NCBI RefSeq assembly: GCF_000027125.1
Contig: NC_017626.1
Reading direction: 5' to 3' (one strand)
Length of the DNA stretch: 64,000 bases
Source: Escherichia coli 042
Lineage (GTDB): Bacteria; Pseudomonadota; Gammaproteobacteria; Enterobacterales; Enterobacteriaceae
Positions 57,901 to 63,900 of the stretch are shown here, one piece after another. Numbering within the stretch: position 1 is the stretch's first letter; the number at the start of each line of letters is the position of its first letter. The position numbers are program-made.

Positions 57901-60900
57901 ACTGGCTGATGCTCGTCAAAAAAGGGAAGAGGCCAGAAAACTTGTTGCTGCAGGCATCGATCCCCGTGAACACAAACGTGCAGTGAAAGAAGAGCAGACG
58001 AAAGAGGCTATTACCTTTGAGTCAGTTGCCAGAGAGTGGCACGCAGTAAATAAAAAATGGACAGAAGAACATAGCCGACGGGTGCTGAAGAGCCTGGAAG
58101 ATAATTTGTTCCCAGCAATTGGGAAGCGGAGTATTGATAGTTTTAGTACGCGCGATCTCCTTGTCCCTATCAAAGTAGTTGAGGCTACAGGGCGTCTTGA
58201 AGTGGCTTCGCGTCTTCAGCAGCGTACCAATGCGATTATGCGTTGTGCAGTGCAAAGCGGTTTGATCGATTACAATCCTGCTCAGGAGATGGCTGGGGCA
58301 GTTGCTTCAAGTAATCGTGTCCATCGACCAGCACTTGAACTGAAACGCTTACCTGAACTACTCCAGCGAATTGATAGCTACTCCGGACGACCTTTAACCC
58401 GTCTGGCTGTTGAGCTCACGTTATTAATCTTTATTCGTTCCAGTGAGTTGCGCTTTGCCCGTTGGCCAGAGATCGATTTTGAAAGGGCAATGTGGACAAT
58501 CCCGGCAGAACGAGAAGCTATTGAAGGAGTGAAGCATTCGGAACGTGGCTCGAAAATGCGTACTCCTCATTTAGTGCCGCTTTCTCGTCAGGCACTGGCA
58601 ATCCTTAAACAGGTTCATAAGCTTAGTGGCGAGCGCGATTTTGTTTTCGTTGGAGATCACAATCCTTGTAAACCGATGAGTGAAAATACAGTGAACAAGG
58701 CGCTGCGCGTGATGGGATATGACACTAAGATTGAGGTTTGCGGTCATGGCTTCAGGACCATGGCATGTAGCTCGTTGATTGAATCAGGGCTGTGGTCTAG
58801 GAACGCTGTTGAAAGGCAGATGAGCCATATGGAGCGTAACTCTGTACGTGCTGCTTACATTCATAAGGCTCAACACTTGGATGAGCGTAAAATGATGCTG
58901 CAGTGGTGGGCAGATTTTCTTGATGTAAATCGGGTGAAGGGCGTCAGCCCATTTGATTTTGCCAAGGAGAAATGAGCTATGGTAATGAGGTTATAGATAA
59001 GAGAGAATACTACTTTATCGCGGGTTTTTAGTGGCTGGCAGGTCTAGATGAGTAGAAAATTCAAGTAATCTACACTCACTCGACTTAAAGATGGGGCCTT
59101 TTAAAAGGTCCTGCTTTGATGCTTACTGGAATGATAACCGTCCTAATCGTTGGCGAGTTTGTTCCATAAGTCCTGAATCCATAGGTTTTCTCTCTCATTG
59201 ATATTAAGTAGCACCCATAAATTTTATTCAAGGATAAGAGATAATGGCAAATTTTTCGGTAGCTGCGAGAACATTAATTCATTTAGGGGCGGAACTGATT
59301 ACCTCAGATGAAGTTGCTATAAATGAACTTGTTAAGAATGCTTTTGATGCCGAATCTAAACGGGTTAGGATAAATGTATTCATACCTATTTCGCATTCGT
59401 TAATAGATGACTGCCTTGCAATACTCGACAATAGTAAAAAAGAGGAAGCTCTTCAAGATGATATTTTTCATATAAAGAAAATGTTAATTGAAAGTGTTTC
59501 TGAACCTTCTATTGCAGCCCAAGTAGAAGAGTTGTTGCTAAACTTAACTTCAGATTCTAGCAAGGATGAAGCAAAAAAAATAGTCGAGTCGATAAACTAT
59601 ATAACAATCGAAGATTCTGGTTGTGGAATGGATTTAGCGACACTTGAAACGGTATTTTTGGCAATAGGCACTCCCTCTAAAGTAAACTCTGAAAGTACAA
59701 AAGACTTAAATAGAAAAATCCTAGGCAATAAAGGTATTGGACGTTTAGCAATGATGAGACTTGGGGATATTGCCAACGTTACATCTTGGGTTGAACAAGG
59801 TAGTGCCCATGAAATTGAATTCGACTGGCGAATGTTTGACGATCCTGAAAAAATAATCACCGATATTGAATTTGAAATAAAACCGACCACTTGTCCAAGG
59901 CCAACACCTTCAGGGACTGTAATAAAGATAACAGCACTTAAAAGCTCTTGGACTGAAGAAAAAGTTCGCGAAAAGCTCGTGGGTGATTTTTTTAGAAGGT
60001 TACAAAACCCATTTGTGATGTCATTGGATGAAGGTAGCTCCGATAACACAAAAAAAAATAAAAAGAATAGAACTGTAGGCTTTCCAATAGATGTTCATAT
60101 TAATGGAGGAACTCGAATACCTATCGAAGGTATGAAGAAAGTGTTAACAGATTTAGTTCAGGCTGATATGGAGCTCTGGTTTGACCCAAACGGGATTGGT
60201 GATACACCTGAAGTTATTCTCCGTACGAGTTTGACTGACTACCAACGTGGAAATGAACCTGAAAATACTAATAGAACAATAGAAGAAGTAACACATGTTT
60301 TAAATGTTAATTTTGAAGCACTTAAGAAAATTGGCCCCGTAAGAGCTACTATTAGATGGTTTAATAGAGAACGGTTACGCCAGCAAGCTACTTTGCATGG
60401 TAACTGGAAAGCAGCGAAGGCCGAATTAGATTTATGGTGTGGAGGAATAGCAATATATCGAGATGGTTTTCGCATTGGATTTTCTGGACAATCAACCGGC
60501 GAAGACTGGCTGGGACTAGATAGTTCTGCTCTTAAGAGAGGAGGTTTTGCTGTAAACCGTATTCAGACTGTCGGTGCGTTAGAGATTTCAAGAAAAGAAA
60601 ATCCCGGTTTGGTTGATAGATCTAATAGAGAAGGATTGATTGAATCACCAGAATCCAATCTTGTAAGAGATATGCTGTCGAAATTTGCTATTGATGAACT
60701 TCGTCGCTACATCGGTCATGAAGGGCAAGAAGAGAAGAAAGCACGTCTAAATGATATAGTTGAAAGCGCTCCTGCAACTATACGCGCTCGGATACTGCAA
60801 GCTGAGCAAGGACTCACATCTATAAGGTCTAAGGTTCCCGCAGATGTTCAAGAATCAGTACAATCAATCGCAAATAATTTACACTTTATAAAAAATGAAG

Positions 60901-63900
60901 TAACTCGTTTTGAAGAGGCTAGCAAACTAGCAACAGAGAGACGTGAGGATATTCTTGAACTTGCTGGTGTTGGAACCGTAATGTCTGGTGTACTACATGA
61001 GCTCACTAGGACAACAGGCCACACTCGACAGCTGTTACAAAAGTTATCTAAAGATGAGTCTCCTGGTACTAAAGCTTTATTAACGAAGCTAGATTCGGAA
61101 ATTAAAGCGATCAATACGCGACTTCGACAGTTAGATCCTTTAACACCTTCTGGAAGGCATCGCAAAGAAATATTTAATTTGTCAGCATTGCTGAATACTA
61201 TATTAGAAGGGTATGGAGCTCGCTTTGAACGGCATAATATAATTCCAGAATTCAAAATCTCTGGAGTTGATGATACTCAACCTGTCGAAGTAAATATGGT
61301 ACGTGGTTTTGTTAGCCTTGCAATTGAGAATTTAATTACAAACTCGGTTTATTGGGTTCAGCAGGGGGGGAGAAGTGATCGTCGTATTACTTTAGAACTA
61401 GATGCAGAATCTAGGACATTAACTTTGCGTGATAATGGGCCAGGTATTTCTCCTGCAGATAAAGACAGAATTTTCACTGCAGGATTTACAATGCGACCTA
61501 AAGGGCAGGGTTTGGGTCTTTTCATTGCAGCTGAAGTGGCTACCTATCATGATGCGAGGCTTTTGTTGGACTCTGCTGATGAGGATGGCCGATATAGAGG
61601 TTTTGTCTTGGAGCTTCCAAAGGAATGATTATGGATATTCAAAAGTCATTTACTGAATCAAAAATTTTAAAAGTAGCGATCGTTGACGACGATTTGTCCG
61701 ATTTAATTACTATGGACGATCTGAATACTATAGACAAGGATATTGCCAGTTTGCTTGGTGATCCATCCGATCCTGATTGTGAAAGTTACCATGAACTACT
61801 AGCATCTGAAGGCTATGATCTTGACGAAATAGAAGATCTTGCTCAACCTCTTTCAAATAAATCAATTAGAGAAAAAGCTCCTGAGCGTCTAAAAAATGCG
61901 GCAAATAAAATTATCGAATTTCGTTATGATAACGCCAAGCCAATTAGACGTGTTAAACAATTACTACTGGAAGCTGGCATTTTAGAGGATAATATTCATT
62001 ATTATTTTAGCCCTGAAATACCTAATGAAGAGTTTTATGATCTTTTAGTGATAGATTACTTCTTGGTAAAAAATTCCTCCAAGCATACTTTACCTTTTAT
62101 CAAAAAAATACTCTCAACTCATGAAAAGGCACCAAAGCCTTTACAAGTTATTCTGATGTCGACTTATGAGGCAGAGTTAAAAGCAGAATTCAGGAATATT
62201 CGTCCCGAGATAAGAACTTCAAGCTCAAGAATGAGAATCATGAGCAAACCAATGTCTGATGATGATTTAGTATACTGGCGCTCTGCTTTGTTCCAGTTAT
62301 CTTCAGATCGACAATTTGTCGATGCAGTAGAAAAATTTGTTACTGAAACAATAAGTGGTTTTCAACATGCTGCACAAGAACAAGCTAAAAGATTATGGGA
62401 GCTTGATCTTCAGGCAATGGATATTCTCCATGAAGCTGCAACATCTGATAATGATGATTTTTGCCGCTATGTTGAAGAATGTCTAAGTAGACAATTATTA
62501 ACGGCTCTAGAAGAATGCTCTGGTATAAGAAAATCATTAGGTGTTTTAGGTGAATCATTAATAAAACATAGAGCTAACAACGTAATTGCGCCTGTTACTG
62601 AAATTGGTGATTCGAGGGCGGCAATTAGAACACTAATGAGGAGTATGGAATGGCGTGGGGGAAATACCCCTAGCATGACAGAGTTTAAAGACCCTAAAGA
62701 CAGAGCAAAGTGGATTCAGAAAAATCTGAGATTTGGAATGGTACTAAAATCACCAGATGATAAAAGATGGCTTAATTTAACTCAAGCGTGTGATCTTGCA
62801 CAAACAAAAGAGGATAATTTAAATTCGGTATCTCTCTTGCTTATTAGTGGTTCCTATGCTCGGCCAGTTGGACGTGAGAATGGGCAATCATTAGTGTATT
62901 TGAACACATCATTATCTGATGCAGGTAGTGAGGTTTTGTGTTGGGATGTACGTAATGTTCAAACGCCCTCAATATTTGATTTTGCTCAAACGTTTTATAA
63001 TGGCTGGTCAATTACTGGAGAGCTTCGTCTAGACCAGGCTCAAAGTATAGCTGCTTTATATAGTTCTCGAACTTTAAGGGTTGGTCTTCAAAAAAGGCTA
63101 AGTAGCTGGTGTCTTGATGGTAAAGCTTTATTCATAAACAAATTAAATAACAGCGCTCCAAGTGATAAAATCGAGGGTACGACTATTTCTGGTCATGCGA
63201 TGAATCGTGGTAAACCCGACGAAGTACATATCGATAAAGATAGCATGATAAAGCTTCAAAGAGATTTTCCTAATAGTATTAATAAAATATCTCTGAAATT
63301 ATATATGGGAATGCAGCTAAAGCCTGGTTCAAAAAACCAAGAAGAAGGTATTTTGATTTATTGTGCTGAAAAGCCGGAGAATATAGAATCACTTCGTAGG
63401 GCTATTAATGATAATGATTTTTTAAATCGTGATGTTAATCAAAATAAAGTGGTAATAGCTCTATGGCATAAGTGATTTGATTTATTGCTAATTTATCAGG
63501 TGTATTATTTTCTCAATGTGAGCTAATTATTTCTTTATTAGCTCACATTGATATCCATTTATGTTAAATGATAAGGGGAAATTGTACTATAAAATATAGA
63601 CCAGATTAATTTACCCCTTCTTTTTATTTATGGCAAATTGCGCATGAGCCTCCGCCTTCATCTTCCCCATAAATTTCATCAATATCAATGAGAGTCTCAC
63701 CAGGGCGTAGTGGGTTAATGATTTTTTTCGCTTTGAGTCTGGCTTGCCGCTTTTCAAAATCAGTGACAATTTGAGCAATTCTTTCAGGCTCCTCAAGTGA
63801 CTCTAGTGATTCACCTTTAGTCCAAGTAAAGGGAGAACCATGTTCAATTGCATTTTTTTCATATCGTTTAGCTTCTTCAAATGCCTCTGGGTGACGCTCT

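Follow-up and report, generated by a model that had tools for sequence, protein, structure and literature searches.

The subject of this study is a pair of adjacent genes on the plus strand of a 64,000-nucleotide stretch of the Escherichia coli 042 chromosome (NC_017626.1), hereafter called the window. Gene 1 (59244..61628) encodes a soluble histidine kinase (HK)-like protein of 794 amino acids (aa), and gene 2 (61631..63475) a response regulator (RR)-like protein. Convergent with them lie the genes of SspBCD, a single-strand phosphorothioation (PT) system which, together with SspE, was reportedly described by Xiong in 2020 as a phosphorothioation defence system. With moderate confidence we favour the reading that the pair is a soluble two-component-like phosphorelay and the effector ("restriction-side") partner of SspBCD, a third alternative to SspE and SspFGH. 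The architecture and the pairing as described below are held with high confidence. What appears to be new is the adjacency of this clade to sspBCD, its occupancy of the SspE/SspFGH slot in E. coli and the MazF-toxin-like fold found in the partner protein.

The protein family itself has been described. Bellieny-Rabelo, Pretorius & Moleleki (2021, Genome Biol Evol 13:evab024) defined HEF_HK (PF19191), a variant of the DHp domain, and Response_reg_2 (PF19192), and found HATPase_c_3, HEF_HK and HATPase_c combined in 174 of 222 HEF_HK proteins (PMC8011034). In their survey the kinase-like gene was linked to an RR-like gene at 91.6% over 644 regions, the neighbourhoods of HEF_HK were enriched for restriction-modification (R-M) genes (C5-methyltransferase, Vsr, HNH_2), descent of HEF_HK from paraMORC ATPases was proposed, and the C-terminus of the RR-like proteins was left without any domain (PMC8011034). 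A kinase architecture with two Bergerat modules, already published in 2021 and contained in Pfam, is alone not a discovery, and the value of the present locus lies in its genomic context. The window pair shares with the known HEF_HK pairs the domain order HATPase_c_3, DHp (with H-E) and HATPase_c on a soluble chain, a following gene with a divergent receiver and an uncharacterised C-terminus, the association with DNA modification and the kinship to paraMORC proteins. Linkage in the published clade is chiefly to C5-methyltransferases, Vsr and HNH; in the window clade it is to SspBCD. Judged by their profile scores, the window proteins form a divergent branch of the HEF_HK/Response_reg_2 family, because these scores lie near or below threshold: gene 1 gives a weak Pfam match to HEF_HK (E 0.065, aa 583-634), and gene 2 matches Response_reg_2 at E 4.6e-4 over aa 139-198 only. 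Among 57 gene 1 homologues HEF_HK is matched by 38 at E<=0.1 and by one at E<=0.001. The group-1 architecture is present, with HATPase_c_3, the weakly matching HEF_HK region and HATPase_c, a chain that appears soluble as judged from its AlphaFold2 (AF2) model, and an RR-like gene adjacent. The locus is thus best described as an Ssp-linked variant of this family and a candidate third partner class of PT immunity.

Linkage of the gene pair to sspBCD

The island that carries the pair has the order integrase, gene 1, gene 2, followed on the opposite strand by a gene of the PAPS-reductase family, a gene for a protein of 1110 aa and a DUF4007 gene. In PADLOC, these three genes convergent with the pair are SspD (E 1.3e-140), SspC (E = 0) and SspB (E 6.9e-115). 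The 3' part of sspD occupies 63624..64000 on the minus strand, and sspC and sspB lie beyond the window end. PT, PAPS reductase and DUF4007 receive no mention in the 2021 family paper (PMC8011034).

Relatives of the pair are numerous. A word-indexed protein search with gene 1, in which the 8000 best candidates were scored, gave at least 1423 matches at E<=0.001. The 120 matches listed are close relatives, nearly all full-length with both precomputed Pfam domains, and come from Pseudomonas, Salmonella, Klebsiella, Citrobacter, Pectobacterium, Stenotrophomonas, Xanthomonas, Shewanella and many metagenomes. A scan of genome contigs, one of whose two patterns was a generic kinase G2 box that brought in ordinary kinases, yielded at least 12 full-length relatives.

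Homology to gene 1 or gene 2 was the only criterion by which the loci of relatives were picked. In 18 of the 20 informative loci, the window counted, sspB, sspC and sspD adjoin the pair, some with sspA too; because these loci were found by homology to the window proteins, the figure describes the clade of the window and not all HEF_HK proteins. Sampled were Pectobacterium, Pseudomonas xantholysinigenes, Dokdonella, Salmonella, Citrobacter, Stenotrophomonas and a betaproteobacterium, then, after dereplication by species, Pseudomonas ACN8, Methyloversatilis, Variovorax, Duganella, a gammaproteobacterial metagenome-assembled genome, Thiobius, Blastopirellula and Piscinibacter, and also two metagenomic contigs in which the RR-like output region is 21-23% identical. 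The 18 linked loci reach from E. coli to a planctomycete; identity falls as low as 32% in gene 1 and 21-23% in the gene 2 output region. In several of them the pair lies on the strand of sspD or sspA and starts 10-90 nt after it, and wherever called genes were listed, an RR-like gene comes after the HK-like gene. In Rhizobium hidalgonense (28% identity) the order is sspD-sspF-sspG-sspH and then the pair, and in Salmonella an SspE-like GmrSD protein is encoded on the far side of sspBCD from the pair. In Frondihabitans (23%) a type II methyltransferase gene overlaps the start of the kinase-like gene, as in the situation of the 2021 paper; this exchange in a distant clade would fit a modification-coupled module. 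The neighbourhood of DNA-modification genes by which MORC and paraMORC proteins are recognised is accordingly present, as sspBCD in the 18 loci and as the methyltransferase in Frondihabitans.

Within E. coli the pair stands where other Ssp partners stand. An sspD homologue is found in 25 complete genomes, which fall into three identity classes: 9 genomes with the pair, 14 in a class of 71% and 2 in a class of 69%. One locus was inspected in each of the latter two classes; the member of the 71% class (strain S10) carries SspF-SspG-SspH, that of the 69% class (GPEC87-32-644) SspE. Each E. coli locus inspected has the partner in the same slot and in convergent orientation to sspD. According to the RefSeq annotation of the identical locus, neither SspE nor SspFGH is encoded in the pair-carrying E. 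coli island. Gene 1 and gene 2 show no homology to SspE, SspF, SspG or SspH in PADLOC, although the same library gives the true proteins at E<1e-190 elsewhere in E. coli. The window system thus resembles SspBCD-SspE and SspBCD-SspFGH in having sspB-sspC-sspD beside a variable partner module, convergent with sspD in E. coli in all three cases. It differs from them in the partner, which is without sequence similarity to SspE, SspF, SspG or SspH and is a putative His-Asp relay, whereas SspE and SspFGH represent a DUF262 GTPase-nuclease and an FtsK-like translocase complex. Partners can co-occur: the pair is found with SspE in Salmonella or with SspFGH in Rhizobium, and SspE and SspFGH are known to occur with each other (PMC8092258).

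Neither sspE nor sspFGH accompanies 83.9% of 2,678 sspBCD modules, and further partners have been predicted (Wang 2021, PMC8092258). In Acinetobacter baumannii global clone 2, a histidine kinase was noted near Ssp loci that lack SspE (PMC12421847). In the openly searchable literature, subscription papers lying outside it, nothing was found that ties PT systems to GHKL, MORC or kinase modules; the PT survey of Rakesh, Aravind and Krishnan (2024) mentions neither kinase nor GHKL nor MORC, and no fold assignment for the output domain of the partner was found in the searchable papers.

Defence genes cluster in islands, and BrxL, Mrr and GmrSD are encoded nearby in Salmonella, so that the pair might be an autonomous abortive-infection or defence system which shares islands with Ssp and has no PT dependence. 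We consider this unlikely. The pair directly adjoins sspBCD in 18 loci whose flanks are otherwise unrelated and whose integration sites differ, often in an operon-like arrangement, and in the distant clade Ssp is replaced by a methyltransferase gene overlapping the HK-like gene; modules coupled to a modification typically show this pattern. We have good confidence in a functional coupling of the pair to Ssp.

Some neighbours in these loci deserve mention in their own right. The Salmonella Livingstone island is a dense defence island with SspE, SspBCD and the kinase pair together; at 15411..20012 of this locus (L007) there are an AAA_11/AAA_12 helicase-PLDc_2 fusion, an Mrr_cat protein and a BrxL-like gene. 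In P. xantholysinigenes (L004, 6303..7430) a gene of 375 aa, with SRA and N-terminal domains of the ScoMcrA type, lies directly upstream of the kinase-like gene, beside sspBCD. ScoMcrA-type enzymes are PT-dependent restriction enzymes, and their presence beside a module that writes PT is odd. A metagenomic locus (L092, 4498..5699) has a 185-aa gene and a gene of the S-adenosylmethionine-dependent methyltransferase family (214 aa) between sspC and sspD, upstream of the pair.

Gene 1 carries two GHKL ATP sites and an H-box in a DHp hairpin

Gene 1 is annotated in RefSeq as a 'sensor histidine kinase' (WP_001273407.1), and the open reading frame, Pfam, AF2 and Foldseek agree on a layout of paraMORC-type GHKL ATPase, middle domain, coiled coil, DHp and CA. 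The first-pass annotation had placed the gene at 59286-61613, missing its 5' limit by 42 nt and its 3' limit by 15 nt. All seven motif coordinates that it gave translate exactly and lie in the frame of gene 1, namely ELVKNAFDA (59325..59351, aa 28-36), DSGCG (59613..59627) and GNKGIG (59724..59741) in the N-terminal part, and His585 (60996..60998), ENLITN (61326..61343), DNGPGI (61431..61448) and GQGLGLF (61503..61523) in the C-terminal part. This motif set is far beyond chance. The claim that two Bergerat-fold modules are combined in one polypeptide was borne out by hidden Markov models, by the AF2 model and by Foldseek.

The N-terminal module comprises aa 1-255 (59244..60008) as delimited by HATPase_c_3, invariant residues and structural matches to MORC2 and TRAP1. 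In Pfam the HATPase_c_3 match is split by an insert into aa 21-46 and aa 118-203 (E 1.5e-7). HATPase_c is found at aa 691-793 (E 2.1e-12) within the CA domain, which extends over aa 640-794 (61161..61625) and is further supported by profile matches in the PDB and by invariant residues. At E<=0.001, HATPase_c is present in 57/57 homologues and HATPase_c_3 in 56/57. Residue conservation was read from an alignment of these 57 sequences, with identities down to 41%. Invariant are E28, N32, D35, D124, G126, G128, G161, K163, G164 and G166 in the N-terminal module, H585, E586, L587 and R589 in the DHp region, and E695, N700, D730, G732, G734, F744, G754, G756 and G758 in the CA domain. All elements of an N-terminal GHKL module are thereby present (motif I, E-x3-N-x2-D; G1, D-x-G-x-G; G2, G-x2-G-x-G), as are the N, G1, F and G2 boxes of a histidine kinase CA domain. 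The separate C-terminal kinase motif set proposed earlier, consisting of H-box, N-box, G1 and G2, is invariant in the 57 homologues.

The two ATP sites belong to different GHKL classes. A catalytic Glu in motif I is typical of hydrolytic GHKL enzymes such as MutL, MORC and Hsp90. Motif I of the N-terminal module reads E28-x3-N32-A-x-D35 and includes a Glu of the catalytic type, like MutL and MORC; because of this residue the module is predicted to be of the ATPase type and not a second kinase module. The N-terminus also resembles that of the BbrUII/HgiDII restriction enzymes (NCBIfam, E 7e-19) and matches REase_II (PADLOC, E 5e-12). The earlier view that a kinase with an ATPase as its input domain is unusual stands in so far as an ATPase-type module in the input position is unusual among HKs; the arrangement is, as outlined above, neither rare nor undescribed.

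The AF2 model of gene 1 (predicted local distance difference test (pLDDT) 78.8, predicted template modelling score 0.69) shows no membrane-type segment. Searched against the PDB with Foldseek, it gave two independent sets of matches. The first comprises HK853, WalK/YycG, ZraS and EnvZ chimeras over approximately 225-270 columns, corresponding to DHp and CA. The second comprises MORC2 (9cdg, 9cdj, 9cdh) and TRAP1/Hsp90 (4z1i, 4j0b) with E of about 1e-9 over approximately 530-580 columns, and covers the GHKL module and the middle domain. A gene 1 profile run against PDB sequences found kinases only, ZraS, HK853 and WalK among them, over aa ~520-783.

Between motif I and G1, at aa 47-117 (59382..59594), AF2 and conservation define a hypervariable insert of four helices (51-62, 67-84, 88-98 and 107-115). 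It is the most variable part of gene 1, with a mean top-residue frequency of 0.29 as compared to 0.78 in the flanking core. The ATP site around it, by contrast, is invariant. Diversifying selection on a surface, for example one that recognises a target or a phage factor, would be expected to leave such a pattern. The stretch downstream of the N-terminal module, which had been left as an unassigned linker of about 380 aa, turned out to consist of a conserved MORC/Hsp90-like middle (transducer-like) domain at aa 282-468 (60087..60647), supported by its alpha/beta fold in AF2, by Foldseek and by conservation, and of a coiled-coil connector at aa 469-570 (60648..60953; AF2 helices 469-528 and 533-601) that leads from the ATPase module to the DHp. 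Block 394-468 of the middle domain holds 21 invariant residues, and W398, G400, G401, Y405, R406, D407, R410, N461, R462, E463 and G464 are conserved in it; by analogy with MORC and paraMORC ATPases, in which an S5-fold transducer supplies a basic residue to the ATP site, R406 and R410 are candidates for this residue.

The DHp-like helical hairpin extends over aa 571-630 (60954..61133) and contains the H-box H585-E586, as indicated by AF2, by invariance and by the alignment to DHp and CA of HK853. In the model H585 lies within helix 533-601, which is paired with helix 607-630 directly upstream of the CA domain, and HK853-type structures align over about 250 columns; the prediction that H585 sits in such a hairpin is thereby upheld. 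Two outcomes had been named beforehand as decisive against the two-module kinase, a single Bergerat region or the lack of a DHp hairpin around H585, and neither applies, since both regions adopt the Bergerat fold and H585 lies inside a DHp-type hairpin.

One of the two GHKL modules might nevertheless be a degenerate pseudo-ATPase or pseudokinase that serves as scaffold or for dimerisation only. AF2 gives low confidence to the ATP-lid region 141-162 in the N-terminal module, and the H-box reads H-E-L-T-R, without the canonical T/N at H+4. ATP lids, however, are flexible in all GHKL proteins, and neither module shows any change in its nucleotide-binding and catalytic residues throughout the 57 homologues, which makes this explanation very improbable. 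As to the H-box, a 2026 preprint remarks on the same T/N absence in PF19191 and ties a missing T/N to phosphatase, not kinase activity (bioRxiv 10.64898/2026.02.27.708494). As the T/N at H+4 is lacking, gene 1 may be a kinase without phosphatase activity.

Gene 2 joins a receiver-like domain to a MazF/CcdB-fold core

Gene 2 is annotated in RefSeq as a 'hypothetical protein' of 614 aa (WP_000354454.1), and an orthologue is named 'Response receiver domain-containing protein' in UniRef. The stop codon of gene 1 (TGA, 61626..61628) overlaps an in-frame ATG at 61625 (ATGA), which as an alternative start gives a protein of 616 aa; RefSeq uses the next ATG (61631), with AAGGA before it at 61620..61624. 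The two genes are probably translationally coupled under either start. Residue numbers of gene 2 refer to the 616-aa frame.

The N-terminal part, aa 14-228 (61664..62308), is a divergent REC-like domain as indicated by Pfam Response_reg_2, hhalign and invariance. It has an acidic triad D21-D22-D23, an insert of about 80 aa after beta1, the predicted phospho-acceptor D144 (62054..62056) in "VIDYF", S179/T180 in "LMS[ST]" and K208-P209. The elements of a receiver, namely acidic residues after beta1, a phospho-acceptor Asp after beta3, a Ser/Thr after beta4 and a Lys after beta5, thus have counterparts, and D21-D22-D23, D144, S179 and K208-P209 do not vary among the 41 family members aligned, of which 23 match Response_reg_2 at E<=0.1 and 6 at E<=0.001. 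Aligned with hhalign to six canonical REC sequences, the family gave E 1.1e-4 and a probability of 56%, with D144, S179/T180 and K208 placed on D57, T87 and K109 of CheY. No match was obtained by hhalign against CheY as a single sequence, and a search of PDB sequences with the gene 2 family profile (hmmsearch) found no receiver or toxin. From the invariant residues it is reasonable to regard this half as a receiver domain; the assignment is weak because the profile scores are low (E 4.6e-4; E 1.1e-4 with 56% probability).

The output region, aa 228-616, is modelled by AF2 with a pLDDT of 92.4 and appears to consist of three parts. A helical-bundle domain at aa 229-345 (62309..62659), recognised from AF2 and conservation, has D261, D275, Y282, E296 and E326 invariant. 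The conserved core of the region, at about aa 363-487 (62711..63085), is a MazF/Kid/CcdB-fold domain. The top 50 Foldseek matches of the output region are all of the MazF family, with template modelling scores normalised to the target of 0.57-0.72, and the MazF/CcdB fold of the core was found by two methods. We placed the domain from the order of secondary structures in the model, beta-beta-short alpha-beta-beta-beta-alpha-beta-long alpha, so that these limits are approximate; the barrel with C-terminal helix of MazF, PemK, Kid and CcdB is present there. An invariant polar cluster is formed by F370-G371, T386-Q387-x-C389-D390, R468 and R485. The C-terminal alpha/beta domain, aa 488-616 (63086..63472; AF2), is variable across the family (conservation 0.48) and absent from the alignments with most distant relatives; in the most distant ones the conserved part of the output region is the MazF-like domain (best stretches of 120-263 residues of the 389-aa query). 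The whole output region was found only behind a Response_reg_2-type receiver, in 63 clusters among 1.84 billion representatives.

Within the sequence 'LNLTQACDLAQ' the pentapeptide T-Q-A-C-D (62780..62794, aa 386-390) has C389 and D390 invariant over 60 sequences. The Rhizobium relative keeps it as 'ADCDLA', and the Frondihabitans relative, which is linked to a methyltransferase, as 'LNLTPACH'. On paper it resembles the caspase QACxG, yet it sits in a MazF-like barrel with no conserved His alongside.

Proposed role of the pair and its genomic setting

We infer that the pair senses DNA or its PT state, transfers a phosphoryl group and releases a toxic output. The N-terminal paraMORC-type GHKL module together with the middle domain would dimerise on ATP and clamp or scan DNA, as MORC, MutL and the GHKL-type restriction enzymes do. 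The PT state of the DNA or a phage product would alter the cycle of ATPase and clamp, and the coiled coil (aa 469-570) would relay this change to the DHp, whereupon the CA domain would phosphorylate H585. The phosphoryl group would then pass to D144 in the REC-like domain of gene 2, and the output region would be released, its MazF/CcdB-fold core arresting growth or blocking phage replication by cleavage of RNA or by poisoning of a target. In its full form, with a MORC-like clamp that reads PT and a His-Asp transfer that releases a MazF/CcdB-fold toxin, the scheme would amount to a third, distinct restriction or abortive-infection arm of PT immunity; this we put forward tentatively and consider possible but doubtful.

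Several points weigh against the effector reading. The study that defined the family was purely computational, and the family as a whole is known by computation (PMC8011034); the linkage count speaks for one clade within it. Gene 1 obtained only generic GHKL N-terminal matches in PADLOC (REase_II, MzaB) and appears to have no place among catalogued defence proteins, while gene 2 matched no family at all in PADLOC, NCBIfam or PHROGs, hence no PADLOC defence family. The receiver scores are weak, as described. The scans recognised no nuclease domain in the product of either gene. The kinship to MazF is seen at the level of fold only: Pfam PemK and CcdB gave no match, hhalign of the gene 2 family against E. 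coli MazF was negative, and the catalytic Arg/Thr positions of MazF are not conserved on a tentative secondary-structure mapping, so that the domain could be a binding module rather than a toxin. To call the output of gene 2 a 'toxin' is thus hypothetical, and we give activity as a MazF/CcdB-type toxin somewhat less than an even chance. Finally, PT may either activate the pair, as with SspE, or protect from it, as with SspFGH.

A different role would follow if the pair were a regulatory two-component system that tunes PT modification, through expression or activity of SspBCD or as an epigenetic read-out, and not an immune effector. PT modification is partial and regulated in known systems (PMC8092258), a signalling role controlling R-M systems was proposed by Bellieny-Rabelo et al. 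(PMC8011034), and the failure to find a nuclease in either protein is in line with it. Gene 2, however, has no recognisable DNA-binding output and its conserved core has a toxin fold; the pair occupies the exact slot of the restriction partners SspE and SspFGH and is convergent with sspD in the E. coli island, and the N-terminal GHKL module groups with those of restriction enzymes. A purely regulatory role is therefore considered improbable.

The effector reading can be set beside other systems. Prokaryotic paraMORC ATPases go back to Iyer, Abhiman & Aravind 2008, as cited in PMC8011034 and PMC12137116. Like paraMORC proteins, BbrUII/HgiDII and the GHKL-fused Shedu protein VcSduA, gene 1 has an N-terminal hydrolytic-type GHKL module, a clamp-like middle domain and a fused output module, and R-M or defence genes as neighbours; in GHKL-fused Shedu nuclease the ATPase is required for anti-phage activity (PMC12137116). 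The GHKL-fused enzymes carry a nuclease output on the same chain, whereas gene 1 carries an HK transmitter that presumably signals to a second protein. From the toxins MazF, Kid, PemK and CcdB the domain in gene 2 differs in that a sequence relationship is undetectable by Pfam or hhalign. Unlike a MazF-type toxin-antitoxin system it lies inside a multidomain protein of 616 aa, behind a receiver and with no antitoxin gene, and instead of the MazF catalytic pair it has, on the tentative mapping, its own cluster of T-Q-x-C-D and two Arg.

Detocs, the defensive two-component system, is said to have been described by Rousset et al. in 2023 as a three-gene system in which a kinase is accompanied by a buffer receiver and by a second receiver that is fused to an ATP nucleosidase of the nucleoside-phosphorylase type. 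In concept it would resemble the window pair as an HK-receiver relay directed against phages, with the enzymatic effector being part of the receiver protein; it reportedly has neither a MORC-like ATPase nor a link to DNA modification, unlike the pair. No Detocs-type PADLOC family matched the pair, the presence of Detocs models in the release being unchecked.

If the scheme is true in its full form, this would be the first case of epigenetic self/non-self discrimination wired through a two-component phosphorelay, and the pair could explain part of the approximately 84% of sspBCD modules that are without a known partner, possibly including those of A. baumannii global clone 2 (PMC12421847). As an Ssp partner it would be a candidate for the missing restriction component of many apparently orphan sspBCD loci in Escherichia, Salmonella, Klebsiella and Citrobacter, and likewise in Pectobacterium, Pseudomonas, Stenotrophomonas and Xanthomonas. 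It would also imply that a MORC-type ATPase, a prokaryotic cousin of eukaryotic chromatin silencers, can serve as the sensor of an HK. With the pair of about 4.3 kb and sspBCD of about 5 kb, E. coli would offer a tractable system for the conversion of a DNA-backbone mark into a phosphorylation signal, which is worth an experiment because the whole system comprises about 9-10 kb and is native to this organism.

The pair belongs to an integrated island. In the window the E. coli chromosome runs from lptG, yjgR and ahr to the tRNA-Leu gene leuX, then to a P4-type integrase gene and into the island, whose GC content is 0.36-0.42 as compared to about 0.52 around it. The integration site is the tRNA-Leu (CAA) gene leuX (57438..57522, plus strand; ARAGORN, RefSeq annotation of the identical locus), and the P4-type tyrosine integrase is encoded at 57722..58975 on the plus strand (open reading frame; NCBIfam NF007246, E 1.3e-82; RefSeq). 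A scan of 58900..64000 for promoters and terminators gave sites no more numerous than in shuffled sequence. The island is present in 9 of 5,426 complete E. coli genomes with an identity of at least 99.9%. The pair is essentially chromosomal and island-borne, since tblastn with gene 2 gave no match in phage records and one weak match in plasmids.

Comparison of the island-carrying genomes revealed a G7 homopolymer in the CA-domain coding region of gene 1 (61364..61370, plus strand). In 2 of the 9 genomes, ETEC1747 (pig, Belgium) and B1.H1.39 (wastewater, Poland), this tract is G6 and the kinase is frameshifted, the split gene being annotated as two 'ATP-binding protein' genes. The difference could be due to phase variation, to inactivation of a costly gene or to a homopolymer error of long-read sequencing.

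Two further genes of the window were observed in passing. Just upstream of the leuX island lies yjgR (54591..56141, minus strand), a core-genome gene for a HerA-like P-loop ATPase that is unrelated to the pair. Between tabA and argF an open reading frame of 503 aa (41760..43271; WP_001074114.1, 'hypothetical protein') has a GC content of 0.37 as compared to about 0.5 nearby.

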